Source: an uncultured Candidatus Binatia bacterium (GTDB taxonomy: Bacteria; Desulfobacterota; Binatia; Bin18). Taken from it: a stretch of DNA of 64,000 bases. The position numbers and the translations under genes are program-made. The stretch is from the NCBI GenBank assembly GCA_965242795.1, contig OZ251505.1:431133-495132 (forward strand), in the 5' to 3' direction. Positions 1-58,809 of the stretch are shown one piece after another. The number at the start of each line of letters is the position of its first letter. Position 1 is the stretch's first letter. The notes beneath the pieces were generated by a model, which saw only the letters and a list, made by a program, of their open reading frames with translations, did not search any database and was not told where the DNA came from.

Positions 1-635
<635 letters not shown>

Positions 636-886
636 AGGATCCTCTTAGTGTCTCATTCCCTATCGAAGGGTCGAAGAGTGGGAGAAAGACCGGGGCTGTG
701 AGTCCGCCGCATTGCCTCTACTCGGAAATCTCGAACCGTGACGCGCCTTGACGGACGTATCCCCGGATTTTTGTTGCACCTGCGGGGCGCATCTGATAGG
801 GAGCGGTGAGTCACGCTCCACCACGCACCAATTCGCCGTTTCCATCGACAAGGGGTCGCCCGATTCGGTCCGAAGGAGGTCGTTTC

Positions 887-1114
887 ATGCCGACAGCGAG
901 GAAGAAGGTCGCCAAGAAAACGGTCAAGAGAGCCGCGAAAAAAATGGTCAGAAAAGCCACCAAGAAAGTCGTGAAGAAGGCGGCCAAGAAAAGAGTCGCC
1001 AAGAAGGCCGTGAAAAAAGCGGCGAAAAAGCGCACCGTGAAAAAGGCCGTCAAGCGGGCTGCCAAAAAGGCCCCGGCCAAGAAGAGAGCTACCAAGCGGG
1101 CTGCCCGCCGCTAA
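887..1114 (+). CDS. Histone H1-like / lysine- and alanine-rich nucleoid-associated DNA-binding protein (KKAAKK-type repeats)
   Basis: ATG at 887 preceded by a GGAGG RBS. Product MPTARKKVAKKTVKRAAKKMVRKATKKVVKKAAKKRVAKKAVKKAAKKRTVKK... has the composition of bacterial H1/Hc1/AlgP-like tails. Confidence 0.7.
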   Translation: MPTARKKVAKKTVKRAAKKMVRKATKKVVKKAAKKRVAKKAVKKAAKKRTVKKAVKRAAKKAPAKKRATKRAARR

Positions 1115-1146
1115 CCTCCGAGCCGATACCTTCGGCGGCAGACCTC

Positions 1147-1178
1147 GAAAAAAGGCCCCTCCGGGCCTTTTTTCTTTT
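1147..1178 (+). terminator. Rho-independent terminator (AAAAAAGGCCCCTCCGGGCCTTTTTTCTTTT), potentially bidirectional
   Basis: GC hairpin GGCCC-ctcc-GGGCC followed by a T-run immediately after the histone-like gene. An A-run on the 5' side makes it symmetric. Confidence 0.65.
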
Positions 1179-1199
1179 CCGGCATTAAACCTAGGGGCC

Positions 1200-2054
1200 A
1201 TGCAACAACGGTTGGCGGCGCAGACCGCGCAGGTCACGCTACCCGAGCGTGAGAAGTTTACCGCCCCGCTTCTCCTGCTGCCGGGGTTGTGGACGGGAAG
1301 CTGGGCATGGGACGAGGCGGCCTGGGCGTTTTCGCAGCGCGGCTGGGCGTGCTGGACGCTCGACCCGCTCGTGTCCGGGACGCGCCGCGCGCCGGCGTGC
1401 GATACGTTGGACGAGCGCGCCGCGCGCATAGCATCCGCAGCCGCGGTGCTCGACCAGCCGCCGATCGTCATCGGCTACGACGCGGGCGCGCTGGCGGCAC
1501 TGCTGGCCGCAGAACGCATGCCGCCCGCCGCAAGGTTCCGGGCGCTGGTGTGCGTCTCTCCGCTCGTACCGCGTAGCTTACAGGGGGGACGCAGACACGC
1601 GCTGCCGCTCGTGCGGTTGGCGGCGTTGCCGGCGCTGCTCTGGAATCGTGCTCATCCCCCGCCGTCGCGCCGAATGGCGCGCGATTTCCTGTTCCACGCG
1701 CTGCCCGCGGCCCGACAGGGCGCGCTGGCGACCAGACTGCGCCCCGACACGGGCGGCGTCGTCCGCGACCTGACGCGCGGCAACGTTACCCTGCCCGCGG
1801 CGCCGCTTCGGTGTCCGGTATGCGTCGTGTGGGGCGAGGACGACCGCATGGTCGCGTCGGCCGCGGTGCGCCGGTTCGCCACGACACTGCAAGCCGACGA
1901 GCACCCCTACGCTTGCCAAGGACACTGGCTGTTATCCGGTCCTCCCGCTGCCACACTCGTGGGCGACATCCATCGTTGGCTGATCCGCACTCTGGGCGAT
2001 GCCCTGCTGCTTCCACCGGAAGAGGAACCGACTCCCGCGGAGCGCCGAGACTAG
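1200..2054 (+). CDS. Alpha/beta-hydrolase fold protein
   Basis: 284-aa ORF with LLLPGLWTGSWAWDE...IVIGYDAGALAALLAA resembling an alpha/beta hydrolase core. The start is weakly supported. Confidence 0.5.
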   Translation: MQQRLAAQTAQVTLPEREKFTAPLLLLPGLWTGSWAWDEAAWAFSQRGWACWTLDPLVSGTRRAPACDTLDERAARIASAAAVLDQPPIVIGYDAGALAALLAAERMPPAARFRALVCVSPLVPRSLQGGRRHALPLVRLAALPALLWNRAHPPPSRRMARDFLFHALPAARQGALATRLRPDTGGVVRDLTRGNVTLPAAPLRCPVCVVWGEDDRMVASAAVRRFATTLQADEHPYACQGHWLLSGPPAATLVGDIHRWLIRTLGDALLLPPEEEPTPAERRD

Positions 2055-2112
2055 CACGGCGTCCGTCTCTCGCTTCAATCTTCACTCCCTTCCCTCAAGG
2101 TGTTGCGACTCC

Positions 2113-4134
2113 ATGCTGCAACTCAGGAACGTCAGCCTGTCGTTCGGCGGGCAACAAGTGTTTCGCGGGCTGAATTGGCAGATCCGCAAGGGTGCCCGGA
2201 TCGGGCTGGTGGGGCCCAACGGCGCCGGCAAGACGACGCTGTTCCGCATCCTGATCGGACGGCAGGAACCCGACGCCGGACAAGTGCAGCGTGCCCGCGG
2301 GCTGCGTGTCGGCTATCTGCCCCAGGAAGGCATTGAGGTATCGGGACGAAACGTGTTCGCGGAGACACGCGCGGCGTTGCCGGAGTTACCTGCGTTGCAG
2401 GCCGAACTGGCGACGCTCGAGGCGGGGCTGCATGAGGAAGCGGACGGCCTGGAGGCACAAGCCGAACTGCTGGCGCGCTACGGCGAAGTGCAGCATCGCA
2501 TCGAGGCGTTGGACGGGTTTCGCGCCGACACCGCGGTTGCCACGGTGTTGAACGGCCTGGGCTTTCACCAAGCACAGTTCACGGCGCGCACCGACACGCT
2601 GAGCGGCGGTTGGCAGGCGCGCATCGCACTGGCCAAGCTGTTGCTCCAACGGCCCGACGTCCTACTGCTGGACGAGCCGACGAACCATCTCGACCTGGAT
2701 TCGCTGCTTTGGCTGGAGTCCTACCTGCGCGGCTTTCCGGGCAGTCTGGTCATCGTGTCGCACGACCGCGCGTTTCTGGACCGCATGGTGAACCGCGTCG
2801 CCGCGCTGCACGACGCAGGGCTGACCGAGTACGTCGGCGGCTACGCGGCGTTCGAGCGCGTGTTCGAAGAACGCTTGGAGGCGCACCGCAAGGCGTACGC
2901 GGCCCAACAAGACGAAATCGAGCGCATGACGCGCTTCATCAACACGTTCCGCTACAACGCCCGCAAGGCGTCGCAGGTGCAGAGCCGCGTCAAGCAACTC
3001 GAAAAGATGGATCGGCTGCCGCCGCCGCAGGCTGCGCCCAAGGGCGTCCGGTTCGGGTTTCCCGCGGCACCGCGCAGCGGGCGCCGCATGCTCGAACTCG
3101 ACGGCGCAATCAAATGCTACGGCGCGCTGCACGTCTTCGCGGGAATCGATCTGGTCGTCGAGCGCGGCGACCGCGTGGCCCTGGTCGGCGTCAACGGGGC
3201 TGGCAAGTCCACGTTGAGCCGCATTCTGGCCGGGGTGGAAGCGCCCAGCGCGGGCAGCCGCCGCGTCGGTCATCAGGTCGTGCTCGACTATTACGCCCAA
3301 CAACAGGCCGAGCGTTTGGATGGACGGAACACGGTCTATGACGAGGTGGCGCGCGAGGCCGCGACCGACGTCGTGCCCCAGTTGCGTACGCTGCTGGGGG
3401 CGTTTCTGTTTTCGGGCGATACGGTCGATAAACCCGTCCGCGTGTTGAGCGGCGGCGAGAAGAGCCGCTTGGCGCTCGCGAAAATGTTGCTGCAAGCGTC
3501 CAACCTGCTCATTCTGGACGAGCCGACCAACCATCTCGACATCCGCACCAAGGACGTCCTCAAGCAGGCGTTGTTGCAATACGCCGGCGCCTATCTGGTC
3601 GTCTCGCACGACCGCGACTTCTTGAGCGGGTTGGTAACCAAGGTGATGGAACTGCGCAACGGCGCGTGCCACGTGTATCCGGGGACGTTCGACGAATTTC
3701 TGGATCGCAAGGCGCGCGAAACCGCCCAAGCCGGTCGGACCGCGCAAGGCAACGGTTCCGTCCCCGGTCAAGCCGGGACTTCGACCGCTCCCGTGACAGA
3801 TGTCGAGGATCCCGCTGTGGAGGCGACGCTCGTCGCGATTCGGCACGCCGGCCGTCTCAAGAAAAAAGGCAAACGCGCCTACCAGCAACACAAGGCGGCA
3901 CGCGCCGCCCGGCAACAGCGGGCCAAGAGGGTCGCCGCTGCCGAACGGCGCATTACCGCACTGGAAGACGAAATTAAGGAACTGGAACGCACGCTGGCCA
4001 GTCAGGAAACCTTCAGCGATGCCGAGCGCGCCCGTGAGGCCGCGGCCCGGCACGAACGGCTCCGCCGGCAACTCGACGAGCAGTACGCGGTCTGGACGGA
4101 GTTGGCAGGCGAGACGACCGATGAATCCGCCTGA
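2113..4134 (+). CDS. ABC-F family ATPase (tandem ATP-binding cassettes, Uup/EttA/YheS-like) with a C-terminal coiled-coil tail
   Basis: Two Walker A motifs (GPNGAGKTT, GVNGAGKST), two LSGG signatures, two Walker B (LLLDEPTNHLD, LILDEPTNHLD) and no TM domain. The tail is rich in K/R/E/A. Confidence 0.9.
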   Translation: MLQLRNVSLSFGGQQVFRGLNWQIRKGARIGLVGPNGAGKTTLFRILIGRQEPDAGQVQRARGLRVGYLPQEGIEVSGRNVFAETRAALPELPALQAELATLEAGLHEEADGLEAQAELLARYGEVQHRIEALDGFRADTAVATVLNGLGFHQAQFTARTDTLSGGWQARIALAKLLLQRPDVLLLDEPTNHLDLDSLLWLESYLRGFPGSLVIVSHDRAFLDRMVNRVAALHDAGLTEYVGGYAAFERVFEERLEAHRKAYAAQQDEIERMTRFINTFRYNARKASQVQSRVKQLEKMDRLPPPQAAPKGVRFGFPAAPRSGRRMLELDGAIKCYGALHVFAGIDLVVERGDRVALVGVNGAGKSTLSRILAGVEAPSAGSRRVGHQVVLDYYAQQQAERLDGRNTVYDEVAREAATDVVPQLRTLLGAFLFSGDTVDKPVRVLSGGEKSRLALAKMLLQASNLLILDEPTNHLDIRTKDVLKQALLQYAGAYLVVSHDRDFLSGLVTKVMELRNGACHVYPGTFDEFLDRKARETAQAGRTAQGNGSVPGQAGTSTAPVTDVEDPAVEATLVAIRHAGRLKKKGKRAYQQHKAARAARQQRAKRVAAAERRITALEDEIKELERTLASQETFSDAERAREAAARHERLRRQLDEQYAVWTELAGETTDESA

Positions 4135-4173
4135 ATCGACGACCCGCCCGACCGGAAACGAGGAGACACCACC

Positions 4174-5157
4174 ATGCGTATCGGATTAGGACTGCCGCCC
4201 ACCGGACACCGGTTCGAAGTCTATAAGGACGTCGCGCAGCAGGCCGAGGCCGGCGGCTTCGAGAGCCTGTGGTGCGGCGAAGCGTGGGGCACCGAGACGA
4301 GTACCCTCGTCACCGCGTTTCTGGCGTGGACACGGCGGATGTCCGTGGGCACCGGGATCATCTCGCTGTATCTGCGCCCGCCTACGCTGACCGCAATGCA
4401 GGCGGCGAGCATGGACCTGGTCGCCCCGGGCCGGGCGCGGCTGGGCATCGGCGTGAGCACGCGGAACATCAACGCATTTCACGGCATCCCGTGGGACCAT
4501 CCGGTCGCCCGCACGCGCGAATACGTGGACGTGCTACGCCGTGTGCTGGCGGGCGAGCGGGTCACTCACGCCGGACGCTTCTACCGGCCGCAGGGCTTTC
4601 GGCTGAGCGCCACGTTGTCACAGAAAGTGCCGATCTACCTGGCCGCGGTGAACCCACGCATGTTGCGCCTAGCGGGTGAGATTGCCGACGGCGTGTTGCT
4701 CGCGTGGCTGCCGGCGCGCCAAGTGGCCGCGTCGGTCGCCGAAATCGCCAAAGGGGCGGCGCGCGCCGGGCGCCGCCTCGCGGACATCGATATCGGCTGT
4801 TACGTCCACACCTTGGTCAATCCCGACCGTGAACGCGCGCTGGCGCAACTCCGCCACGTCCTGGTCGGCTATTGCCAGGCCAACACCTACATTCAGGGAT
4901 TTCGGCGTTTCGGCTATGGCGACGTGCTGGACGAGGTCCTGGCCCGTTGGCAAGCCGGAGACCGGGCCGGTGCGGAGCAGGCGATTCCCGACCGCATGGT
5001 GGAGGAACTGTTCGTCTTCGGCGCGCCGGCGGACTGCCATGCCCAACTCGCCCGCTTCGTCGATGCCGGCGTCCAGCATCCGATCGTGGCCGCGCCGCCC
5101 ACCAGCCAACTTACGGCCGATGACCTGCACGCGATGGTCGCCGCGTTCGCGCAATAG
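4174..5157 (+). CDS. Luciferase-like monooxygenase (LLM) family, probable F420/flavin-dependent oxidoreductase
   Basis: GGAGA RBS; 327 aa with an LLM-like TIM-barrel pattern (GFESLWCGEAWG...PIYLAAVNPRMLRLAGEIADGVLL). Confidence 0.8.
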   Translation: MRIGLGLPPTGHRFEVYKDVAQQAEAGGFESLWCGEAWGTETSTLVTAFLAWTRRMSVGTGIISLYLRPPTLTAMQAASMDLVAPGRARLGIGVSTRNINAFHGIPWDHPVARTREYVDVLRRVLAGERVTHAGRFYRPQGFRLSATLSQKVPIYLAAVNPRMLRLAGEIADGVLLAWLPARQVAASVAEIAKGAARAGRRLADIDIGCYVHTLVNPDRERALAQLRHVLVGYCQANTYIQGFRRFGYGDVLDEVLARWQAGDRAGAEQAIPDRMVEELFVFGAPADCHAQLARFVDAGVQHPIVAAPPTSQLTADDLHAMVAAFAQ

Positions 5158-5162
5158 GCCGA

Positions 5163-6167
5163 TCAGCCGACCAGCATCTTCAACGCCCGCTCGTATGCGC
5201 GGGTGTCCGTGGCCTCGATATTGACCGGGTGGATGTCCACCCCGCACTCGGCCTGCGCCTCCAGGCGGTCGAGACACGCTTCGGCCGAACCCGCGCACAA
5301 GGTCTCGTCCACGAGTTCGTCGGTGACCACCAGCGCCGCGGCCCGAGAGCCGTCTTTCCAGGCCGCCTTGACCTTTTCGACCGTGTCGGCATGGCCGAGT
5401 CGGCTGAGTTGCGCCGCATAGTACGCGCCCATCCGACCGATGTAGAACGCCGCGGCCGCGGCGTGCGCGGCGCGGACTTTTGCGACGTCGGAGGTCACCG
5501 CGACACTCCCCGGCGCACGGACACTGACCGCGTTTGCAGGCCGTCCCGCGGCCATGCTCATGGCGCGCACCGCGTCGATTTCGGCCTGCAGCTTCTTCAT
5601 GGGCAGCCAGATCGGCAGCCAGCCGTCGGCCAGTTCCGCGGTCAGTTTCAGAGCCTTGGCATTCAGCGTCGCCAGATAGATCGGAATGCGGTCACGTACC
5701 GGCTGGAAACGCAACGTAAACCCGCGTTGGAGATTGAACAGCGAGCCCTCGTAGTGCAGCTTCTCGCCCTTCAGCAGCATCTGCATGATTTCGACGTACT
5801 CTTTGAGTCGGGTGCGCGGCGGCTCGAACGGCACGCCGTGAAAGTGCTCGATGACCTGCGCGCCGCTCGTGCCCAGGCCGATCAGCATCCGCCCTTCCGA
5901 CAACTCGTCCAGCGTCGCAAAATGCTGGGCCAGTGCGGCCGGAGTCCGCGAATAGACGTTCACGATGCCGGTGCCGAGGCGGATGCGGTCGGTCTCGGAG
6001 GCCAACAGCGACAGCAGCGTGAACGCGTCGCGGCCCCACCCCTCGGGAATCCAGACCGAATGGACGCCCGCGGCGTCCGCGACCTTCACGCGCTCGATGA
6101 TCGCGCGGTAGTCGGTCCGCCCCTGCCGATCGTTCCAATCAACGCCGATAGCAATATCGCGAGCCAT
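5163..6167 (-). CDS. Luciferase-like monooxygenase (LLM) family oxidoreductase, paralogous to the gene at 4174-5157 and convergent with it
   Basis: 334 aa with GVHSVWIPEGWG...PIYLATLNAKALKLTAELADGWL. The stop codons of the two LLM genes are only ~5 bp apart. Confidence 0.8.
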   Translation of the reverse strand: MARDIAIGVDWNDRQGRTDYRAIIERVKVADAAGVHSVWIPEGWGRDAFTLLSLLASETDRIRLGTGIVNVYSRTPAALAQHFATLDELSEGRMLIGLGTSGAQVIEHFHGVPFEPPRTRLKEYVEIMQMLLKGEKLHYEGSLFNLQRGFTLRFQPVRDRIPIYLATLNAKALKLTAELADGWLPIWLPMKKLQAEIDAVRAMSMAAGRPANAVSVRAPGSVAVTSDVAKVRAAHAAAAAFYIGRMGAYYAAQLSRLGHADTVEKVKAAWKDGSRAAALVVTDELVDETLCAGSAEACLDRLEAQAECGVDIHPVNIEATDTRAYERALKMLVG

Positions 6168-6217
6168 GTTTCCTCCAGACGGTTGTCTTCAAAGACGACT
6201 CCGAGAGGCGACATACT

Positions 6218-6826
6218 TTAGAAGGCTTGATTCTCCTGAAGCCATTCGCCGACGATGGTCGTGTAGTCGTTGAAGATGAGTTCGCTCGGTTGCAGGCGCA
6301 ATTCGGCGCAGAGCCCCGGCAGCGTTCTTCTGAAGTGCCGATACCGTTTCCAGATGTGGGTTCCGCCGGGCACGTCGGCCTTCGTCTGGGAAGAGCGCAG
6401 CCATTGGCTTACGACCTGGACCGCTGTCTGCGGTGTGTTGTCGTGCGCCTTGATGTCCTGGCCCGAAATGTCGGAAATGAACTTCTGGTAGCGGTACCGG
6501 TCCCGATCCACGACGAGGACGTTTCTCTCGCCATCGTGCCGAGCGAGACCCAGGAACAACCCGAGCTCGAAAGGCATGTTGAACCGGGGAAGCCGATGGG
6601 CCGTATCGAGCCCGGTTCTGGAAATGTCGTGGTATCCGAACCGGCAATCGTCCATGATCTGAACGATCGTGTCCACGCGGACTTTTGCCGTGTTGATGAT
6701 TTCGAGCGTGGAGCGAGCCACGAATCCGCAGTCGAAGATGGCGAAGACGACCGCGTCGAAGATGGGCTTGTACGACCTATCGAAAGGACAATTGATGAAA
6801 ACGTTGGCGTTGTCTTCAGCGACCAT
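6218..6826 (-). CDS. Hypothetical protein with weak TIR/DUF4062/nucleoside-2-deoxyribosyltransferase-like features
   Basis: 202 aa. The N-terminal VFINCPFD strand resembles VFIS(S/Y) of TIR/DUF4062, and there is a later FELG motif. GC of the gene (~58%) is lower than its flanks. Confidence 0.45.
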   Translation of the reverse strand: MVAEDNANVFINCPFDRSYKPIFDAVVFAIFDCGFVARSTLEIINTAKVRVDTIVQIMDDCRFGYHDISRTGLDTAHRLPRFNMPFELGLFLGLARHDGERNVLVVDRDRYRYQKFISDISGQDIKAHDNTPQTAVQVVSQWLRSSQTKADVPGGTHIWKRYRHFRRTLPGLCAELRLQPSELIFNDYTTIVGEWLQENQAF

Positions 6827-6837
6827 TCACACCTGCG

Positions 6838-7053
6838 TCAGCCGACTCGGTGCATGACCTTTCGCACGGCTTCTCGCACGGCCTCGCGCGAGACCGTCCC
6901 GATCTGGTGCGACGGCTTGACGATCCGCTGCGGGAGGACACGCCCCTCGCCGACCCGCGGCTCTGAACCGCCCTCCAAGGTACTGAGATCAGCGTATCTG
7001 ACCGGGCGATCCGTCTTTTCTCTCGTGCCTCTCATTCCTGAATAGTGTGCCAT
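6838..7053 (-). CDS. Small hypothetical ORF (71 aa) coupled directly upstream of the TIR-like gene
   Basis: Its stop lies 11 nt before the downstream ATG, with an AGGTG RBS embedded in the junction. There is no recognisable domain and it could be spurious. Confidence 0.25.
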   Translation of the reverse strand: MAHYSGMRGTREKTDRPVRYADLSTLEGGSEPRVGEGRVLPQRIVKPSHQIGTVSREAVREAVRKVMHRVG

Positions 7054-7237
7054 GCCTACTCTCCTTCATGGTTCCCCATCGTCTTCTGTCTCGGGGAACG
7101 ATGTGAGCTTGTTGCATCATTGCTTCTTCCGTTTTGTCAAGAGGCATCGTCACGAGTTACGCGATATGAAGAAGTTCGGGGCATCATGCAGACGACCTCC
7201 AGGAGAATCCGGGGACCACACAACGCCGCTCACACTG

Positions 7238-7840
7238 TCAAAGTTGAGCGTCTATGGCGTAATAGCCCATCTGGGTTGGCGCGGTGAAATACTCCGCCAG
7301 CCGGGAGAGTACCAGCGGAAAGAATTCGCCTTCTCGGTCCGCCGCTTGCATCTGCTCCAAGCCTGTCCAGAAGCTGATCCCGCGTCCGCTGCCTTGTGCA
7401 CGGTTAACCAGCCACAGCACGCCTTGGAAGCCGGGCTGCCGTTTCAGCAACGACAGATAGTCGGCTTCATACACTTCGCGGGCCGATTCGATGTGCCGGT
7501 CGGGGATCGGCAGCCTAATCACGCGGGCAACCCGTCCGCCGATATGGTGGCCTGCTCGGACCAATACTTCGTAACTTTCGGGCTGCGGCGGTTCGGCCAG
7601 AAAGGGGAGCAGCGTGGAGGCGACGGCCTTGCGGCTGGCGGGCTCGGAATCGGCCAGGGAGTCCGGTGAGTTCCACAGGCTGAGAAGGAATCCGGCCGAT
7701 GTGTCGGCCTGCGACATCAGCAGCGCCGCGCCGAACCCCGGCGCGTGTACGAGCGGCGGCAACACCGCCTGCCGGCAGACCGACACACAGTCGGACAGCA
7801 GCGACGGTTTGCACTGAAACGGAATGACTCGCGCGTGCAT
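7238..7840 (-). CDS. Hypothetical protein, possibly a tandem ABM (antibiotic-biosynthesis-monooxygenase-like) fold
   Basis: 200 aa. The C-terminal half GFQGVLWLVNRAQGSGRGISFWTGLEQMQAA is reminiscent of an ABM/Dabb domain. Confidence 0.4.
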   Translation of the reverse strand: MHARVIPFQCKPSLLSDCVSVCRQAVLPPLVHAPGFGAALLMSQADTSAGFLLSLWNSPDSLADSEPASRKAVASTLLPFLAEPPQPESYEVLVRAGHHIGGRVARVIRLPIPDRHIESAREVYEADYLSLLKRQPGFQGVLWLVNRAQGSGRGISFWTGLEQMQAADREGEFFPLVLSRLAEYFTAPTQMGYYAIDAQL

Positions 7841-8018
7841 GACGCCTCCCCTTCTCGACCCTCGCCGGATGGATACCTGATTCTCAGATGGAATGCAGCC
7901 GATACTGGTTCAGCGGCGTCGGCAGGTTTTCGTTTCAACTTGACGGACGCGGCGGAACGGTGTCACACAACGATCAGAACGGTCGGCAACGGTTCGGATA
8001 CCCCGAATGAGGTACGAA

Positions 8019-9389
8019 ATGAGCGATTCGCAGAAGACTCCGCCGCACGCACTGACCCTCGCCGACGCCGCAGACCGGATCCGAACCGGCCAGCTTTCGC
8101 CGGTCACGCTCGTAGAGTCGTGCCTGGAGCACCTCGGCCGGCTGGAACCCGATCTGTGCGCCTGGACGATGGTCGATCGCAAAGGCGCGTCCGATGCCGC
8201 CAGGCGTTGTGAGGCCGAAATCAGCGGCGGACGCTACCGTGGCCAGCTGCACGGCATCCCGCTCGGACTCAAGGACATCTTCTTCACCGCGGGGGTCAAG
8301 ACGAGTATGGGTTCGCCGATCTACGCGGACTACGTCCCGGAGTACGATGCGACCGCGGTCCGGCGCCTCAAAGAGGCCGGCGCCGTGATTCTCGGCAAAG
8401 CCCACACGACCGAGTTTGCCGCATTGGCGCCCTCGCCGACCCGCAATCCGTGGAATCTCGAACACACGCCCGGCGGTTCCAGTAGCGGCTCGGCCGCCGC
8501 GGTCGCCGCCCGGGCGTGTTTCGGGGCGCTCGGCTCGCAGACGTACGGCTCGACCGTGCGGCCCGCGGCCTATTGCGGCTGTGTCGGCCTCAAGCCGACG
8601 TTCGGGCGCATCAGCGTGCACGGCGTCTATCCGCTGGCCGGCAGCCTGGACCATGTCGGCATCTTCGCGCGCACGGTGACGGACATCGCCCTACTGCTGC
8701 GCGTCCTGGCTGGCGAGGATCCGAACGACCCGGTAAGCGCCGTGCAGCCCGTGCCCGACTACCTTCAAGCGCTGCAATCCGCGGAGCCGCCGCGTATCGG
8801 CGTGGTCCGCGAGTTCTTCTTCGAGCGCGCCGACGAAGAAACCAGGCAACATGTCGAAGCCGTCGTGCGGCAATGCGAGCAGGCCGGGGCACGGGTCAGC
8901 GAGGTGATACTTCCCTCGAGCTTCGCCGGGGCGCCCGAAGCCCACTTCAACATGATGTTCGTCGAGGCTGCCTTCAGCCACCGCGAAGTCTATGCCGAGC
9001 ATCGAGACCGCTACAGCCCGCAAATGCGCGACCTGATAGAAAAAGGCCGCGCCCTGTCCGGCGTCGCATACTTACAAGCCCAACGGCAGCAAGAGACGTT
9101 CCGCACCGAACTGGACGCGATCTGCCGCGGCGTGGACGTCCTGCTGACACCGGCGACCCCCGCGCCGGCGCCGCGAGGTTTCACGACCACCGGCGACCCG
9201 ACCTTCAACGGCCCGGCCACGTTCGCCGGCCTACCCAGCCTGTCTCTGCCCTCGGGACTGAGCCGCGGCGGCCTGCCGTTCGGCGTCCAACTCATGGCCG
9301 CGGCGTTTGCCGAACCCCGCCTGCTGGCCGCGGCCAAATGGTGCGAAGACGTGATCGGGTTTTCCGCAACTCCGCGGCTTGCGGAATAG
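8019..9389 (+). CDS. Amidase (amidase-signature family, GatA-like)
   Basis: GIPLGLKDIF...GGSSSGSAAAVAA...GSQTYGSTVRPAAYCG matches the AS signature with the Ser-cisSer-Lys triad context. An alternative ATG lies at 8007. Confidence 0.9.
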   Translation: MSDSQKTPPHALTLADAADRIRTGQLSPVTLVESCLEHLGRLEPDLCAWTMVDRKGASDAARRCEAEISGGRYRGQLHGIPLGLKDIFFTAGVKTSMGSPIYADYVPEYDATAVRRLKEAGAVILGKAHTTEFAALAPSPTRNPWNLEHTPGGSSSGSAAAVAARACFGALGSQTYGSTVRPAAYCGCVGLKPTFGRISVHGVYPLAGSLDHVGIFARTVTDIALLLRVLAGEDPNDPVSAVQPVPDYLQALQSAEPPRIGVVREFFFERADEETRQHVEAVVRQCEQAGARVSEVILPSSFAGAPEAHFNMMFVEAAFSHREVYAEHRDRYSPQMRDLIEKGRALSGVAYLQAQRQQETFRTELDAICRGVDVLLTPATPAPAPRGFTTTGDPTFNGPATFAGLPSLSLPSGLSRGGLPFGVQLMAAAFAEPRLLAAAKWCEDVIGFSATPRLAE

Positions 9390-9559: not shown

Positions 9560-9634
<75 letters not shown>

Positions 9635-29317: not shown

Positions 29318-29791
29318 TCAGGGCAACGCTCGGACCGTCTCCTCCTCGACGATGCCGGGCGCGGGCGTCAGACCCAGCCCGACCAGCAGCCAGAGCAGGA
29401 TCAGCCCGCACACGACGCCGATCCCCACCGCGCCCCAGTGCGAGGCCATCTCGCCGCCACGTTCGATATGCGCGGCAATCGCCCGGCCTTGGAGACGGGT
29501 CGCCAGTAGATACATGATGGCAACCTGCACCAGGACGAGCAGCGCCTCGAGGAGACGCAGGTCGGATGGAACCAGACCGCCCAGCGTCACCGAGGCGCAC
29601 GTGAGCAAGCCCGTCCACAGCAGGATCTGAGGAATGACGCCCGGTTGCGCCAGCCGCTGACAGTTGAGCGACAGCACGACCCCGCCCGCGATCGGCGAGC
29701 CGAGAAACGTCGCCAGTACGACGGCCAACACCGAGTACAGCCGCTCCGACGTGACGTCGGTCGTCCGGCGAGGCAAGTCGGTGGGCGGCAT
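29318..29791 (-). CDS. Hypothetical integral membrane protein (4 TM)
   Basis: Hydrophobic helices LYSVLAVVLATFLGSPIAGGVVL, ILLWTGLLTCASVTLGGLV, LLVLVQVAIMYLLA and GIGVVCGLILLWLLVGLGL. Confidence 0.45.
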   Translation of the reverse strand: MPPTDLPRRTTDVTSERLYSVLAVVLATFLGSPIAGGVVLSLNCQRLAQPGVIPQILLWTGLLTCASVTLGGLVPSDLRLLEALLVLVQVAIMYLLATRLQGRAIAAHIERGGEMASHWGAVGIGVVCGLILLWLLVGLGLTPAPGIVEEETVRALP

Positions 29792-30006: not shown

Positions 30007-30033
30007 GTAGGGGCGAAAAATCTTTCGCCCCCC
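30007..30033. repeat. Hairpin repeat family B copy: GTAGGGGCGA-AAAATCTTT-CGCCCC
   Basis: Stem GGGGCGAAA/TTTCGCCCC. Related copies occur at 32709-32738, 32776-32806, 32832-32861 and 57789-57816, with conserved stems and variable loops. Confidence 0.65.
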
Positions 30034-30117
30034 CGCCCGCATCCAGAACCTGTACTGTGATTGGTGAGCCCGGTCCCCGAGCGTGGAGGAGGGAGACGAA
30101 GGAGGTGGACTCCGCAG

Positions 30118-30165: not shown

Positions 30166-30446
30166 AGGCACTGAGCGCGGCGCAGGGGTTTTGCTTTCTG
30201 CCCCTTCTCCCTCTGGGAGAGGGCTAGGGTGATGGGTCTGGGCGTGGTCCGAAGGATTCAGGTGGGAACGACTCCGGCTATCAAGGGCGACGCATGCGGC
30301 GTCCTCCGCAACGAATCGCGGCAAGACTCTCACGGAAACCTCCCCCGCTAAGCTGTCGGACCGTCGCTTGCCAAGCGGTGGCGAATACCGCGACGGGGAT
30401 GTATGCAGAATCCGTTCAACAATCACGACAGACAGGAGACGGGACC

Positions 30447-31208
30447 GTGGGCAGTTTCGAATATGCGACCGTGCTGAGTACGCTGGACGAAAAGGGCGTG
30501 CGCACCATTAGGCTCAACCGGCCGGAGCGGCTCAACGCCATGAACCTCGACTTGATGCGCGACGTCGGCCGCGCCTTTGCCGACGCGCATGCCGACGCCG
30601 ACACGCGGGCGATCATCTTCACCGGCGCCGGCCGGGCCTTTTGCGCCGGGGACGACCGCCGCGATCACCGGCAGCCCGCGGACGCGACCGAGGCGCGCGC
30701 GTTCGTGGACACCATCCAGGACGCGACGCGGCAGATCGTGTTCGGCGATACGCCGGTGGTCGGGGCGATCAACGGCTGGGCGGTCGGCGGCGGGTTCGAG
30801 TTGGCGATCGACTGCGACTTTCCGATCTGGGCCGCGAGCGCCAAGGGCTTTTTTCCCGAAGTGTCGCTGAACGCGTTCGTGACCGGCGGCGTCACCTCGC
30901 TGCTGCCGGCGCTGGTGGGGCTGAACAAGGCGCGTGAAATGCTGTTCTTCGGCGAGCGGTACGAGGCGGCCACGCTGCTGGACCTCGGCGTGGCGTGGCG
31001 CGTCGTGCCCGACGAACGCCTGATGGAGGAAGCGCAGCGCGTGGCCGAGCGACTCGGCGGGCTGCCGCGGCTGGCGGCGCGGGCCATGAAGCGCGTGCTC
31101 AACCAGAGTGCCGCGGCAAACATCGACACCGCACTGCGGCTCGAAACGGATGCCACGGTCGCCGGCTTTCTCGACCCGGAGACGACCGCCCGGCTGCGGG
31201 ATTTCTGA
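30447..31208 (+). CDS. Enoyl-CoA hydratase/isomerase (crotonase) family protein
   Basis: IRLNRPERLNAM...AIIFTGAGRAFCAGDD...GAINGWAVGGGFELAIDCDF. Start is GTG at 30447 (AGGAGA RBS), with an alternative ATG at 30399. Confidence 0.85.
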   Translation: MGSFEYATVLSTLDEKGVRTIRLNRPERLNAMNLDLMRDVGRAFADAHADADTRAIIFTGAGRAFCAGDDRRDHRQPADATEARAFVDTIQDATRQIVFGDTPVVGAINGWAVGGGFELAIDCDFPIWAASAKGFFPEVSLNAFVTGGVTSLLPALVGLNKAREMLFFGERYEAATLLDLGVAWRVVPDERLMEEAQRVAERLGGLPRLAARAMKRVLNQSAAANIDTALRLETDATVAGFLDPETTARLRDF

Positions 31209-31431: not shown

Positions 31432-32628
31432 GTGAGCGCGCTCGATCATATCCGGGTCCTCGATCTGACCCAGTTCGAGGCCGGGCCGTCGTGTACCGAA
31501 ATCCTGGCCTTTCTGGGCGCCGACGTCGTGAAGGTCGAACCGCCCAAGGGCGGGGATCAAGGCCGCTATCTGATTACGGACGAGCCCGGCTTGGATTCGC
31601 CCTACTTTCTGCTGCTGAACGCCAGCAAGAAGAGCATCACCCTCAACCTGAAGCATGACGAAGGCTTACGACTATTCAAGCGCCTCGTCCCCCATTTCGA
31701 CGTGCTGGTCGAGAATTACGGGCCCGGCGCGATTGCCGCCCTGGGGCTGGGGTACGACGTGGTCTCCGCCATCAACCCGCGGTTGGTGTACGCCCAGGTG
31801 AAGGGCTTCGGCACGTACGGCCCGTACGCCGGCTTCAAGAGTTTCGACATGATCGCGCAGGCCACGGGCGGGGCGATGAGCGTGACCGGCACCCCGGACA
31901 CGCCGCCGCTGCGGCCCGGCCCGACCATCGGCGATACCGGAACCGGCATGCACTGCGCCGTGGGGATTCTGTCCGCGCTGCTCCAACGCGACAAGACGGG
32001 CAAGGGACAACGGGTCGAAGTCGCCATGCAAGACGCGGTCGTCAACCTGACCCGCATCGGCATGATGGGACACTACTACGGCAACGTCCCGGCGCCGCGC
32101 TCGGGCAACCGGCTGGCCGCGCTGGCACCGACCGATCTCTACCCCTGCGCCCCCGGCGGCCCGAATGACTACGCCTACATCATCAACACCACCCCGGCGA
32201 TGTGGGAAGCGACACTCGAAACCGTCGGACGCGCCGACCTGCTGGACGACCCGCGCTTCTGCGATCAAAAAAGCCGCAACCGGCACTTCGACGAGGTGTT
32301 CGAGACGATCGCGGCGTGGACCCGGCAGCGCGACAAGTTCGCGGTCATGCGCGCCTTCGGCGAGGCCGGGGTGCCGTGCGGCGCGGTGCTGGACAGCGGC
32401 GACGTTCTGGCGAACGAACACCTCAAAGAGCGCGGCATGATTACCACGGTCGCACACCCGACGCGCGGCAGCTTCACCATGCCGGGCTGCGCGGTGCAGA
32501 TGTCCGATTCCCCCGCGGAGGTGCGCCCGGCGCCGCTGTTGGGCGCACACAACGCCGCGATCTTCGGGACGCTGCTGGGGCTCACCGAACGCGATCTGGC
32601 CGGCCTGAAGGACGACGGCGTCATCTGA
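31432..32628 (+). CDS. CoA-transferase family III (CaiB/BaiF-like) protein
   Basis: LDHIRVLDLTQFEAGPSCTEILAFLGADVVKVEPP...LNASKKSITLNLK. Confidence 0.85.
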   Translation: MSALDHIRVLDLTQFEAGPSCTEILAFLGADVVKVEPPKGGDQGRYLITDEPGLDSPYFLLLNASKKSITLNLKHDEGLRLFKRLVPHFDVLVENYGPGAIAALGLGYDVVSAINPRLVYAQVKGFGTYGPYAGFKSFDMIAQATGGAMSVTGTPDTPPLRPGPTIGDTGTGMHCAVGILSALLQRDKTGKGQRVEVAMQDAVVNLTRIGMMGHYYGNVPAPRSGNRLAALAPTDLYPCAPGGPNDYAYIINTTPAMWEATLETVGRADLLDDPRFCDQKSRNRHFDEVFETIAAWTRQRDKFAVMRAFGEAGVPCGAVLDSGDVLANEHLKERGMITTVAHPTRGSFTMPGCAVQMSDSPAEVRPAPLLGAHNAAIFGTLLGLTERDLAGLKDDGVI

Positions 32629-32708
32629 CCCGCGGTCCCCGGTTCGCTTCCCCCCGCACTGGACGGGGAGCGTCCCCTGCCCGGCCGGATTGCTTTTCGT
32701 TTCTTCTT

Positions 32709-32861
32709 TAGGAGGGGCGACGCATGCGTCGCCCCTACGAAGGGGGGCAGACGCCCGAGGGGAGGATGACGTTGCGTAGAGGGGCAGGCGAAAGATTGTT
32801 CGCTCCGACCGCCAGAGAGACATCTTTGCTCCGTAGGGGCGACCGGCCGGTCGCCCCTACG
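32709..32861. repeat. Cluster of three family-B hairpins: GGGGCGACGCATGCGTCGCCCC, GTAGAGGGGCAGGCGAAAGATTGTTCGCTCC (degenerate), GTAGGGGCGACCGGCCGGTCGCCCCTAC
   Basis: Perfect 10-11 bp palindromic stems with the loop sequence swapped between copies. BIME-like tandem arrangement in the 460-bp gap between co-directional genes. Confidence 0.65.
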
Positions 32862-33089
32862 CCGGCGGGTCATACGCGGGCCGGGCCGGTTACCAGCCCA
32901 GGTGGCCGTGGAGGGCGACTTGGTGTGCGCCGCCGCCCTGCGTGGTGCGTTCGCCCTCCACGCTCAGGTCGATCCAGACGCCAACGCCCGTCCGCGTGTC
33001 GTCCGGTTCGGCCCACGGACGCCGACCGCGGGGACACTTGCGACCGATATGCAAAGCTGACACAAAAACCGCGCAACAGGAGGACGGAC

Positions 33090-35237
33090 ATGCAAGAGGT
33101 CACCCGGGAGATTCTGTGGAACATCTCGCTGGCGGGCAAGGTCGTCATGTACCTGCTCCTGCTCACGACGTTCTTCGGCGCGCCGCTGGTCCTGGCTTAC
33201 ACGTGGTGGAACCGGGTCCGGTTCGGCACGGCGGCCAATCGCATCGACGACATCCCGGAACGGACCAAGCGGTTTCTTCTGGAAGCCTTCGGGCAGGGCA
33301 ACGTCGTGCGCGAGCAGCCCGGCGGCTTGTACCATCTGACCCTGTTCGTCGCGTTCTTCGGGCTGTTCGTCGGGACCGGCTTGGTCACGCTCGAACACGA
33401 TACGCCCCTGAACTTCTACTTCGGCGCGTTCTACAAGGTCTATAAGTTCGTGCTGGACACCTGTGGGGTGCTGCTGATCGCCGCCTGCGGCCTGTTTCTG
33501 TACCGCCGCTACGTGCAGCGGCCGGCCGCGCACGCCGGCCCCGCCCCGGAAGACATGGTGGACAACTTCGAGAATCGCGTGGGCTACGGCCTGCCGCTCG
33601 CCCTGATCCTGTTGATCGCCCTGACCGGCCTGATGCTCGAGGGTGTCCGCATTCACACCAACCCGGCCAGCCATCCGGGCTGGGCCTACGCCGGCATGGC
33701 GTTCGCCGCCGTCTTCGCCCTGGCCGACGCCGGGCCGTACACCCATCAGGTCGTGTGGTGGATCCACACCCTCATCATCAGCACGTTCTTCGGCCTGATC
33801 CCGTTCACCAAGATGCGGCACATGTTTCTGGCACCGGTCAACATCTTCTTCGGCAATCTGCGCCCGCGCGGCCGGCTCGAGCCCATTACGGACTTCGAGA
33901 CCGCGGAGACCTTCGGCGTTTCGCAGGTCGAGGAGTACAACTGGAAGCAACTGCTGGACATGGCGTCGTGCCTGGAATGCGGACGGTGCACGCTCAACTG
34001 TCCGACGGTGAATACGGACAAACCGCTCAACCCCAAGAAACTGGTGATGGTGCAGCGCGAGCATCTGATCCAGAAGACGCCGTTTCTGGTGCGGCACGCC
34101 GCGGTCAAGGCCGCGAACGCCAAACAGGCCGCCCACACCGAACTGCCGGTCTGGGAGGGCAAGGACATGATTACCGAGGTGGCGACCGAAGACGTCATCT
34201 GGGGCTGCACCACGTGCGGCTGGTGCGAGGAGGGCTGCCCGGTCGACATCGAGCACATTCAGCGCATCGTGGACATGCGGCGCTACGACGTGATGATGGA
34301 AGCCCGCTTCCCGCAGGAAGTCGTCAACGTATTCAAAGGCTTGGAGACGAACTCCAACCCCTGGAACCTGGGCTTCGACAAACGCGCCGATTGGGCGGCC
34401 GGCCTGGGCGTCAAGACCTTGGCCGAAGACCCGGACGCCGAGGTGCTGTACTGGGTCGGCTGCGCTGGCTCGTTCGACGAGCGCAACCAGAAGGTCTCCA
34501 CCGCGATGGTCAACGTCCTGCAGAAAGCCGGCGTGCGGTTCGCCATTCTCGGCAAGGAGGAAGGTTGTACCGGCGACCCGGCGCGGCGCCTGGGCAACGA
34601 GTATCTGTACAGCACGCTCGCCGAGCAGAACGTGGACACGCTGAACCGCTACAAGGTGAAGGAGGTCGTGACGCAGTGCCCGCACTGCTTCCACACCCTG
34701 GCCAACGAATACCCGGACCTGGGCGGCAACTACACCGTGTACCACAGCACCGAGTACATCGAGCAACTCGTCAAGCGCGACAAACTGAGCCCGGAAGTGA
34801 TGGACTCACAGAACGTGACCTTCCACGATCCCTGCTATCTCAGCCGTCACAACGGGCGGTACGCACCCCCGCGCGAGGCGCTGCGCGCGATTCCGGGCAT
34901 CAAGCTCAACGACGTCGCGCAGTCCAAGACGCGCACCTTCTGCTGCGGTGCGGGCGGCGGCTCGGTCTGGAAGGAAGAGACGCAAGGAGCGCGCATCAAC
35001 GTCACGCGGCTCGACCAGTTGATGCAGGCCGAGCCTGACACCATCGCGGTCGGCTGCCCGTACTGCATGATCATGATGGACGACGCGGTGAAGGGAAAAG
35101 ATCTCGACGAGACGGTCGCGGTGAAGGACGTGGTCGAACTGGTGTCCGACTCGCTCGACGCCGCGCAAGAAGCCGCGGGAGCAAGCGGAAAGAGCGGCGA
35201 TTCGGCACGCAGAGAGACACAAGAACCTGCGGCATGA
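33090..35237 (+). CDS. Membrane-anchored Fe-S oxidoreductase: NarI/HdrE-like N-terminal membrane domain fused to 4Fe-4S ferredoxin and two CCG cysteine-rich domains (HdrD/DsrK/GlpC-like)
   Basis: N-terminal TM helices; CLECGRCTLNCP and CTTCGWCEEGCP ferredoxin motifs; CCG-type motifs (YWVGCAGSFD...CTG, DPCYLSRHNG...FCCGAGGG, VGCPYC). CAGGAGG RBS. Confidence 0.75.
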   Translation: MQEVTREILWNISLAGKVVMYLLLLTTFFGAPLVLAYTWWNRVRFGTAANRIDDIPERTKRFLLEAFGQGNVVREQPGGLYHLTLFVAFFGLFVGTGLVTLEHDTPLNFYFGAFYKVYKFVLDTCGVLLIAACGLFLYRRYVQRPAAHAGPAPEDMVDNFENRVGYGLPLALILLIALTGLMLEGVRIHTNPASHPGWAYAGMAFAAVFALADAGPYTHQVVWWIHTLIISTFFGLIPFTKMRHMFLAPVNIFFGNLRPRGRLEPITDFETAETFGVSQVEEYNWKQLLDMASCLECGRCTLNCPTVNTDKPLNPKKLVMVQREHLIQKTPFLVRHAAVKAANAKQAAHTELPVWEGKDMITEVATEDVIWGCTTCGWCEEGCPVDIEHIQRIVDMRRYDVMMEARFPQEVVNVFKGLETNSNPWNLGFDKRADWAAGLGVKTLAEDPDAEVLYWVGCAGSFDERNQKVSTAMVNVLQKAGVRFAILGKEEGCTGDPARRLGNEYLYSTLAEQNVDTLNRYKVKEVVTQCPHCFHTLANEYPDLGGNYTVYHSTEYIEQLVKRDKLSPEVMDSQNVTFHDPCYLSRHNGRYAPPREALRAIPGIKLNDVAQSKTRTFCCGAGGGSVWKEETQGARINVTRLDQLMQAEPDTIAVGCPYCMIMMDDAVKGKDLDETVAVKDVVELVSDSLDAAQEAAGASGKSGDSARRETQEPAA

Positions 35238-57060: not shown

Positions 57061-57648
57061 TCAGGCGGAGGGGACGTGACCCGACAGACCGGTCACGTCG
57101 TAAGCCATGATAATCAGGTCGCGGGTCTGTCCGGACCGGTCGATCACGAAGTCGGCCAACAGCGCTTCGGTCTGAAAGCCGAGGCGCGTGAACAGCGCCT
57201 GTGCTCCAGGCTGATCGGCCATCATTTGCGCGACGACCTTGCTCAGTTCGAGGTCGTGCGCGACCTCGACGATCTCCTCGGCCAGGACGCGCCCGAGTCC
57301 GACCCGGCGGTATTCGGGCGCGATGAGGATGCGCGTTTCGCCCAGGTGGCGCTGCCACATCACGGTGTTGAGGTGCAGAATGGCGTAGCCGGCGAACGTC
57401 TCGCCCGCCTCGGCAATCACGGTCACGGTCTTGCGGGCTTCCAGGTTCCGCACCCATTCCTTGACGATTGCCGGGTCGGTGATGTCGATGCGCAGATGCA
57501 ACAGGTCGTCCGCGGGCAGGCTGTTGGCGAAACTGACGATGCGGTCCGCGTCGAACGCGGTCATCAGCCGCAGCGTCACGAGCGTCCCGTTTCCCAACGT
57601 CACGGTGTGTGGATACGGTCGCTCCAGATACATCCGCGCTTCAGCCAT
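57061..57648 (-). CDS. GNAT-family N-acetyltransferase
   Basis: RRVGLGRVLAEEIVEVAHD matches the acetyl-CoA binding motif A context. Start at MAEARMY, with an AAGGAG RBS. Confidence 0.75.
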   Translation of the reverse strand: MAEARMYLERPYPHTVTLGNGTLVTLRLMTAFDADRIVSFANSLPADDLLHLRIDITDPAIVKEWVRNLEARKTVTVIAEAGETFAGYAILHLNTVMWQRHLGETRILIAPEYRRVGLGRVLAEEIVEVAHDLELSKVVAQMMADQPGAQALFTRLGFQTEALLADFVIDRSGQTRDLIIMAYDVTGLSGHVPSA

Positions 57649-57975
57649 GTACGCTCCTTGTGTCGGGGTTCTCGAACGAGGGCACGGAGTCGGCGTCCAA
57701 CTCTCCGCCCGTTCGGCGAGTGCTAACAGAAGTGAGCGGAGCATCTAGCACACATGGAGAACCGGGAAAACTCCTTGCAGGCCGCAACCGTAGGGGCGAA
57801 AAATTTTTCGCCCGTCCTCCGACAGCGCGGGGCTACGTGACCGCAACGATCGACCCAGAACCACGATCCGGCCGCGGGCGCGGTTTTCTTCCATCCGTCT
57901 TTTTGGTACGCTTGCAAAAGTTCCCATCCCCTGCAAGCAAGGCATATTCCCGACACCCTCTCACGAGCAGACACC

Positions 57976-58809
57976 ATGCCGGACGACGGATCGCTGCCGC
58001 ACGTGCTGCCCACCGCGGACGAAACCGATTCCTTCAGCACCCTGTTCTGGCAGCTCGGCGCGGCGTACCCGGACTCGCTCCACCAATTGGGCATTCTCTT
58101 ACGCGACGAGGTGTACCGCCGCCCGCCGGGACCCAAGGCGTCGGGTCAGCCGGTGCTGCTGATTCCCGGCTTTCTGGCCGGCGACTGGACCTTGCAGGTC
58201 CTGGCCGGTTGGCTGACCCGGATGGGCTACAACCCCTATTTCTCCGGGCTGGACTGGAACGTGGATTGTCCGAATCGGACCGGGCATTTGTTGCGCTGGC
58301 GCGTCAATCAGATCATCCGCGAGACCGGCCACCCGCTGATCGTCTTCGGCCACAGCCTCGGCGGGATGCTGGCACGGTTCCTGGGCGCCAATTTCCCCGA
58401 CCAGGTGCGGTATGTCGTCACGCTCGGCTCGCCGATTCAACGCACGTCGCAGGTCAGTCCGCTCGTGGTGTTCGCCTCGCGCGTGCTGCAACCGTTCCGG
58501 CGTTGGCGCGGCGACCTGCCGCCGGACTGCGGCACGCTGGACTGCAACTGCCACTTCAACCGCAGCGTCATTTCCCCCCTGCCCGAGGAAGTCGGGTTCA
58601 CCGCGGTGTTCTCCAAGCAGGACGAGGTCGTCGAGTGGCGGGCGTGTCTCGACCCGCAACGCGAGAGCCGCGAAGTGACCGGACGGCATATCGGCTTGAT
58701 CGTGAATGCCCAGGCGTACCGCGTGCTGGCCGAGGTCTTGGCGCGGCTGCACGTCCGGGAGCGCACCCACGACGTCACGCTGGCCGCGCCGGCGCGGCTC
58801 GACGCCTGA
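57976..58809 (+). CDS. Alpha/beta hydrolase, lipase/esterase-like (GHSLGG)
   Basis: VLLIPGFLAGD...IVFGHSLGGMLARF is a PGAP1/lipase class-2-like pattern. Confidence 0.7.
   Translation: MPDDGSLPHVLPTADETDSFSTLFWQLGAAYPDSLHQLGILLRDEVYRRPPGPKASGQPVLLIPGFLAGDWTLQVLAGWLTRMGYNPYFSGLDWNVDCPNRTGHLLRWRVNQIIRETGHPLIVFGHSLGGMLARFLGANFPDQVRYVVTLGSPIQRTSQVSPLVVFASRVLQPFRRWRGDLPPDCGTLDCNCHFNRSVISPLPEEVGFTAVFSKQDEVVEWRACLDPQRESREVTGRHIGLIVNAQAYRVLAEVLARLHVRERTHDVTLAAPARLDA

Follow-up and report, generated by a model that had tools for sequence, protein, structure and literature searches.

Gene Context and Repeat Copies in the Window

The 64-kb stretch of DNA analysed here, in the following called the window, carries a short palindromic repeat (REP) at three loci, all of which are intergenic. 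A cluster of copies lies in a spacer of 461 nt (32629-33089, forward strand), which separates the gene for a family III CoA-transferase (31432-32628, forward strand) from the gene for a CCG/4Fe-4S protein (33090-35237, forward strand); the cluster lies 82 nt past the stop codon of the CoA-transferase gene, and its flanking genes are co-directional. The second locus is the divergent gap between a gene on the reverse strand (29318-29791) and an enoyl-CoA hydratase gene on the forward strand (30447-31208, the start at about 30447 being judged from its orthologue), and this gap holds the copies at 30007 and 30281. The third is the divergent gap between a GNAT gene (57061-57744, reverse strand) and a hydrolase gene (57976-58809, forward strand), with the copy at 57790. 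An earlier sequence-only reading of this DNA had already described copies in divergent gaps at 30.0 and 57.8 kb besides those in the co-directional spacer, and this arrangement stands.

The unit has a length of 28 nt and the form GTAGGGGCGA-N8-TCGCCCCTAC, of which the window contains four clear copies together with one degenerate copy and one remnant, i.e., 4 clear and 2 decayed copies per 64 kb. The copy at 32833-32860 is a perfect double-foot REP, GTAGGGGCGACCGGCCGGTCGCCCCTAC, which is composed of GTAGGGGCGA CCGGCCGG TCGCCCCTAC and has both feet intact. The copy at 32711-32738 (GgAGGGGCGA CGCATGCG TCGCCCCTAC) departs from the perfect form at one position of the left foot, the two feet reading GgAG/CTAC. 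Those at 30007-30034 (GTAGGGGCGA AAAATCTT TCGCCCCccc) and 57790-57817 (GTAGGGGCGA AAAATTTT TCGCCCgTcC) have an intact left arm with the 5' GTAG kept, and a right foot that is mutated and decayed. The degenerate copy at 32776-32809 (GTAGaGGGGCaggCGA AAGATTgT TCGCtCCgAC) belongs to the AAGATTTT variant and shows indels in the left and substitutions in the right arm, and the heavily decayed remnant at 30281-30308 (tcAAGGGCGA CGCATGCG gCGtCCTCcg) belongs to the CGCATGCG variant.

The pattern GGGGCGA-N4-16-TCGCCCC matches three times in the window compared to 0.06 expected, and when as many as 3 of the 20 arm positions may mismatch there are 4 matches compared to 0.0 in 40 Markov shuffles. By gapped-alignment statistics against shuffles of the whole window, neither the 32776 nor the 30281 copy is significant alone; roughly every second shuffled window contains a site that reaches the gapped score of 15 of the former. 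As judged from its sequence the element at 32776-32809 is probably a decayed REP; its credibility comes solely from its position, with a good copy on either side, and from its agreement with the AAGATTTT variant of other genomes. The remnant at 30281-30308 is backed by a better-preserved orthologue in a close relative (locus L119), which is nearer to the consensus (TCAAGGGCGACGCATGCGTCACCCCTCC). Of the five copies counted in the sequence-only reading, four (30007, 32711, 32833, and 57790) are therefore clear, the one at 32776 is degenerate, non-folding and not significant alone, and the sixth at 30281-30308 had been overlooked. Likewise, the three tandem copies that it placed between the co-directional genes reduce to two clear ones (32711 and 32833) with a degenerate copy in the middle. 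A CRISPR array was rejected as an explanation of the cluster, since the copies are unevenly spaced (37 and 23 nt apart), the centres differ, the middle copy is degenerate and further copies are dispersed. No Rfam model matches at the REP copies, the only Rfam match in the window being a tRNA gene (9560-9632).

The repeat also touches gene annotation in the window. The central ATG of CGCATGCG is the first start codon of two mechanically called ORFs, 30294-31208 and 32724-35237. As judged from the orthologues both of these starts are spurious, and the true ones are placed at about 30447 and about 33090. REPs can hence cause 5'-extended gene calls, as the ATG of CGCATGCG opens long ORFs at 30294 and 32724.

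Hairpin Structure and Variation of the Centre

Folded as single-stranded DNA, the four good copies reach z values between -2.7 and -5.5. The most stable DNA hairpin is that of 32833-32860 (-17.0 kcal/mol, z = -5.5), in which a flanking C/G pair lengthens the pairing to 13 bp, followed by 32711-32738 (-13.7 kcal/mol, z = -5.4), 30007-30034 (-10.8 kcal/mol) and 57790-57817 (-8.8 kcal/mol); the degenerate element at 32776-32809 folds no better than its shuffles (z = +0.28). In three of the four clear copies the 8-nt centre is self-complementary, and because this apparent loop mostly pairs with itself, the structure is a stem of 12 bp (12-13 bp) closed by a loop of 4 nt. The earlier description as a 10-bp stem with a 9-nt loop has to be corrected accordingly: the loops measured between the arms are 8 nt long, and the real stem has 12 bp with a 4-nt loop. 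Among the copies from other genomes described below, Watson-Crick pairing is found at positions 11/18 in 88 of 90 copies and at positions 12/17 in 87 of 90, with all four pair types in use. As these positions covary across copies from other genomes, the hairpin is maintained, and the earlier suggestion that the structure rather than the sequence of the loop is kept holds true. The loops, described in the same reading as changing completely, do not vary freely; instead, the centres form a small set of discrete variants that recur across several phyla, which is not what free drift looks like.

A further hairpin of 54 nt is located at 32908-32961 (GTGGAGGGCGA-N32-TCGCCCTCCAC), having a GTGG foot and its complement. 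It folds as DNA with -19.8 kcal/mol (z = -3.4), sits in the lineage-specific block that is discussed below, and is unique, as no second copy was found within the window. It is possibly related to the REP family as a diverged form with a long loop.

Relationship to Published REP Families

The classification of REP-associated transposases by Quentin, Siguier, Chandler and Fichant (2018; BMC Genomics 19:475, PMC6006769) contains a TnpA_Y1 subclass 2.4, which corresponds to RAYT group 4 of Bertels et al. (2017). Its members have the motifs NH[IFV]H (HuH), WQ and YIxNNP, and they occur in hosts from “Cyanobacteria, Bacteroidetes and various phyla” in a patchy distribution that is consistent with horizontal transfer (PMC6006769). 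The REPs of this subclass are “double foot” elements with 5' GT[AG]G and 3' C[TC]AC, and they are also found in-frame within tnpA_REP itself, between the HuH and the Y motif (PMC6006769). In their Table S1, GTAGGGGCGACCGGCCGGTCGCCCCTAC is given for Chloroflexus aggregans (ACL24704.1) and GTAGGGGCGAAAAATTTTTCGCCCCTAC for Caldilinea aerophila (BAM00060.1), both of subclass 2.4 and with double foot = T (PMC6006769). Window positions 32833-32860 are identical to the C. aggregans REP, and the intact form of 57790-57817 is the C. aerophila REP. The likeness to REP/BIME elements that had been noted before is thereby supported by identity to published double-foot REPs of subclass 2.4 (PMC6006769). The agreement comprises the same 28-mers, the GTAG foot and the CTAC, the GGGCGA stem, the 4-nt loop, and the centre variants; moreover, the in-frame position between HuH and Y in the transposase gene and the patchy occurrence over many phyla are seen likewise in the genomes that we sampled. 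What differs is the host, since a Binatia-like lineage is not among the entries in the available part of the table (PMC6006769). It is very likely that the window copies belong to the known 28-nt double-foot REP family of the TnpA_REP subclass 2.4/RAYT group 4 lineage, whose transposases are domesticated HUH-Y1 enzymes. Bertels, Gallie and Rainey (2017) found that 16-mers flanking group 4 RAYTs are of modest abundance, with 14 occurrences per replicon, and from this modest number the REP may be a low-copy family.

Several other systems resemble the window element in part. Di Nocera, De Gregorio and Rocco (2013; PMC3733652) described a super-family of GTAG-tagged REPs, which includes intragenic REPs and cases in which the GTAG gives TAG stop codons. 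In common with it are the GTAG tag that adjoins a GC-rich stem of 6-13 bp, the short loop, and complementary stem changes which define sub-families, as well as the appearance as singles, dimers, clusters, intragenic in-frame copies and TAG stops, all of which were met in this sample. Classical GTAG REPs, however, carry an unpaired tag at one end only, whereas in the window element the tag is paired with its own complement and the element is therefore without orientation. The REP/BIME elements of E. coli (RAYT group 2, subclass 2.2) are similar in being extragenic GC-rich hairpins with a GTAG foot that form clusters between co-directional genes and serve as ssDNA substrates of an HUH-Y1 enzyme. 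The comparison with an E. coli-type BIME extends to three copies within 150 nt (32711-32860), with an orientation that is undefined since the element is symmetric. In E. coli the palindrome is imperfect, has a bulge and is oriented (Y and Z alternate in BIMEs), with hundreds of copies per genome and an occurrence restricted to enterobacteria; in contrast, the window element is a perfect symmetric palindrome that is common to many phyla. The Rickettsia palindromic elements (RPEs) are palindromes lying in-frame in tolerant loops of protein genes, as the REP does in other genomes, whereas none of the window copies is intragenic. RPE-1 has a length of approximately 100-150 bp, which is much above that of the 28-nt REP. 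RPE-4/6 have been linked to CGTC REPs, RPEs being described as “longer palindromic insertions”, and no transposase gene accompanies CGTC repeats, RPE-4/6 included (Di Nocera et al., 2013; PMC3733652).

Distribution in Other Genomes and Association with RAYT Transposases

An exact scan for GTAGGGGCGA-N4-16-TCGCCCCTAC in one genome per species gave at least 118 loci (8 kb each) with 123 copies. The matches listed come from more than 20 phyla, cultured isolates included, among them Chloroflexota, Bacteroidota, Desulfobacterota, Myxococcota, Planctomycetota, Cyanobacteria, Acidobacteriota and Nitrospirota, furthermore Spirochaetota, Firmicutes, Alpha-, Beta- and Gammaproteobacteria, Binatia, Latescibacterota, and others. 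The centre has a length of 8 nt in 90 of the 123 copies listed, and the flanks are unrelated. All centre variants of the window recur among these matches, CGCATGCG and CCGGCCGG eight times each, AAAATTTT six times, and AAAATCTT and AAGATTTT three times each. The only signal in the flanks of the listed copies is a preference for Y at position -1 (85 of 122) and R at position +1 (83 of 122). A MITE, which would have 100-400 bp, terminal inverted repeats and a target-site duplication, was rejected, as the unit has 28 nt and the flanks of the 123 copies listed are unrelated apart from this Y(-1)/R(+1) preference. A literature search using the REP 10-mers returned primer coincidences only.

In other genomes the REP also occurs in-frame within ordinary genes, i.e., genes for an AcrB-like protein, the acyltransferase domain of a PKS, RibD, AsnB, and the linker of an E2 acyltransferase. 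Such in-frame copies were seen at eight loci (L044, L051, L023, L103, L009, L015, L038, and L062), where the REP adds a peptide of about 10 residues of the type VGAxxxSPL or xRG[DE]xxxAPT/RPY. A length of 28 nt is not divisible by 3, and for the REP to be in-frame the net insertion must be about 30 nt. In some of the loci listed the TAG of the REP terminates an ORF. In four unrelated genomes (L004, L046, L060, and L097) the REP lies within an ABC transporter operon, between the gene for a family-5 solute-binding protein and that for the first permease, and the spacer between such genes is a classic position of enterobacterial REPs. At five further loci (L007, L080, L081, L085, and L096) the REP has flanks that are complementary over 5-11 nt and is nested in the middle of a longer palindrome, an arrangement that looks like an insertion into the loop of an older hairpin or a palindrome growing outward. 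Predicted viral contigs of IMG/VR contain the exact REP at 87 loci (L123-L209), some contigs having at least 5 copies. No RAYT-like protein is encoded at any of these 87 loci, and the idea that phages act as carriers of the transposase is therefore unsupported.

When crude ORFs of the at least 118 loci were clustered, one small Y1 family emerged, which is encoded at six loci from different phyla. A Y1_Tnp protein by Pfam match is encoded in these 6 of the 118 loci listed, and the family has the motifs PNH[IVM]H, WQRNYY and YI(A/V/L)(N/D)N(P/S). Its best NCBIfam match is NF047646, REP-associated tyrosine transposase, with 62-78 bits, which is under the equivalog cutoff of 80. An exact REP is located inside the transposase gene at five of the six loci, where it is read as VGANGRSPLR, VGAIHESPLR or RRGDPMGRPY, and in the full-length transposase genes it lies between the HuH and the Tyr motif. 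At the sixth locus (L084) an exact REP is found just 3' of the transposase gene, which has a degenerate copy within. The association with RAYT transposases, which the sequence-only reading had raised, is thus present in other genomes, with the REP inside the Y1 gene at five loci and just downstream of it at the sixth.

A profile search retrieved at least 7997 homologues, many of which are named “REP element-mobilizing transposase RayT” by their source. VGAxxxSPL is present in 26 of the best 120 homologues, and in a single reading frame, as VGATGRSPL, VGATHASPL or VGANGRSPL. In at least 22 of the 26 it stands between HuH and WQ; the other four were not placed by this crude check of motif positions. 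VGATGRSPL and VGATHASPL are the translations of two centre variants of the window cluster. Neither the 64-kb window nor 70 kb from the loci of its relatives yielded a Y1 transposase gene when searched by tblastn and scanned for the motifs, and the E. coli TnpA_REP structure was not among the PDB sequences that phmmer matched with a RAYT as the query.

Presence and Absence among Close Relatives

The closest homologues of the CoA-transferase that carry source names are from Candidatus Binatia (75-78% identity), and they suggest that the source genome is Binatia-like. The spacer between the CoA-transferase and the CCG genes differs among close relatives in length as well as in the number of REP copies. 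At 88% protein identity (L122) it has 82 nt and no REP copy, and at 89% (L121) it has 529 nt of unrelated content and again no copy. At 96% (L119/L120) it has 218 nt and one REP, which is orthologous to that at 32711, whereas the window spacer with its 461 nt has three. Copies are thus gained and lost between close relatives, and this presence and absence at orthologous sites points to mobility. A block of approximately 265 nt (window 32739-33003, compared to 11308-11360 of L119) is present in the window only and contains the degenerate copy, the perfect copy at 32833-32860 and the long hairpin at 32908-32961. A clean pair of empty and filled sites, from which the boundary of an insertion could be taken, was sought by comparing the window to L119 and was not obtained; since the difference of about 265 nt is complex and no clean single insertion, the boundary is unreadable. 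At the orthologous site of the decayed 30007 copy, L119 has a perfect copy (L119 8475-8502). Together with the spacer series this indicates that REP copies are passed on by descent and decay, with an occasional gain or loss. That the perfect copy lies in a block missing from the 96%-identical L119 suggests a recent gain, with loss in the relative as the alternative.

The region upstream of the CoA-transferase gene was found to vary as well. In L121 it contains, at 182-8293, a type I restriction-modification system (HsdM, HsdS, and HsdR) and a PIN-domain gene, whereas at the corresponding position L119 has the enoyl-CoA hydratase gene and others. Since the contents of L121 and L119 differ, this region is a variable island.

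Alternative Explanations

The window copies might be relics of an extinct REP population, inherited vertically and decaying, with no active transposase left. Foot or arm mutations occur in four of the six window copies, so the population may be largely relict; the orthologous copies shared by the window and L119 and the missing RAYT gene in the window agree with this as well. The perfect 28/28 copy in the block that is missing from the 96%-identical relative is at odds with it, as it suggests a recent gain, even if loss is possible, and we consider an extinct population possible, although rather unlikely.

Unlikely, and slightly more so, is that the copies are RNA elements exapted by the host, which would act as exonuclease barriers or attenuators in the 3' UTR of the CoA-transferase gene or in the inter-cistronic spacer and tune the expression of the neighbours. 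Such a role is compatible with an origin as REP. The position of the cluster, 82 nt downstream of the stop codon and between co-directional genes, would suit it, as would the four unrelated genomes with a REP between the genes of a family-5 solute-binding protein and a permease, and the finding that most REPs are flanked by unidirectional or convergent ORFs (Di Nocera et al., 2013; PMC3733652). However, the copies at two of the window loci stand in gaps between divergent promoters, relatives with 88-89% protein identity lack the elements in the orthologous spacer, and several copies are decaying.

Rho-independent transcription terminators are very improbable, although the hairpins are stable and GC-rich and one cluster follows a gene: no run of T follows any REP copy in the window on its 3' side and a terminator scan of the window calls none of them, as the earlier reading had also held against plain terminators, and in addition copies are found in divergent gaps and elsewhere in-frame in coding sequences, while an identical sequence over more than 20 phyla would be unexpected for terminators. 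Duplex-DNA operators of a dimeric transcription factor with 10-bp half-sites 8 bp apart, as one form of the structured protein-binding site that had been proposed earlier, can practically be dismissed, because, despite the perfect dyad, the 8-bp spacer fixed in most copies and the two copies in divergent promoter regions, the spacer covaries to stay self-complementary (88/90 and 87/90, with four pair types), which no operator needs, the neighbouring genes are unrelated across loci, copies lie within coding regions and are gained or lost between close relatives, and no conserved regulator gene was seen to co-occur with the motif.

Proposed Mobilisation and Implications

The reading that we prefer is that of a double-foot REP of the RAYT group 4 lineage. 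Since no RAYT gene lies within the window, we infer cognate mobilisation in the source genome only indirectly: by analogy with characterised enzymes, a cognate RAYT would be encoded elsewhere in this genome and would move the copies by ssDNA cut-and-join. RAYTs from E. coli, S. maltophilia and Marinomonas, none of them of subclass 2.4, have been assayed (Corneloup et al., 2021; PMC8266576). These enzymes bind the folded ssDNA hairpin, use the GTAG as a guide-like motif and carry out cleavage and strand transfer; ssDNA cut-and-join has been shown in vitro only for these E. coli, Stenotrophomonas and Marinomonas enzymes. In the source genome, a copy that becomes single-stranded, e.g., at the replication fork, would form the hairpin of 12-13 bp, which the RAYT would recognise together with the GTAG foot. 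By cutting and rejoining the single strand it would then copy the palindrome to new intergenic or tolerant in-frame sites, and point mutation would subsequently decay the copies. Any effect on neighbouring genes, such as a stabilised 3' end of the CoA-transferase mRNA, is putative and would be secondary.

Since the literature already contains the element family along with its transposase and the exact sequences, the value of the window copies as a discovery is low. For annotation it is of relevance that in other genomes the REP adds 10-residue peptides of the VGAxxxSPL or RG[DE]xxxAPT type to real proteins. For RAYT group 4, the uniformity of the REP across phyla in our sample raises a modest question as to its cause. 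One idea, which we regard as doubtful, is that the REP is still proliferating in the Binatia-like lineage, for which the perfect copy in the block missing from the 96%-identical relative would speak, and that the uniformity across phyla comes from the in-frame REP carried by the RAYT gene in the one frame VGAxxxSPL. If this were true, a single horizontally transferred RAYT gene would bring its own template and could seed REPs in any host, and the intragenic REP would have a function in the system, as a cis site or an autoregulator, and would be no accidental insertion. For the Binatia-like lineage itself, the presence and absence series among relatives represents a small natural experiment on the gain and decay of REPs in a little-studied phylum.
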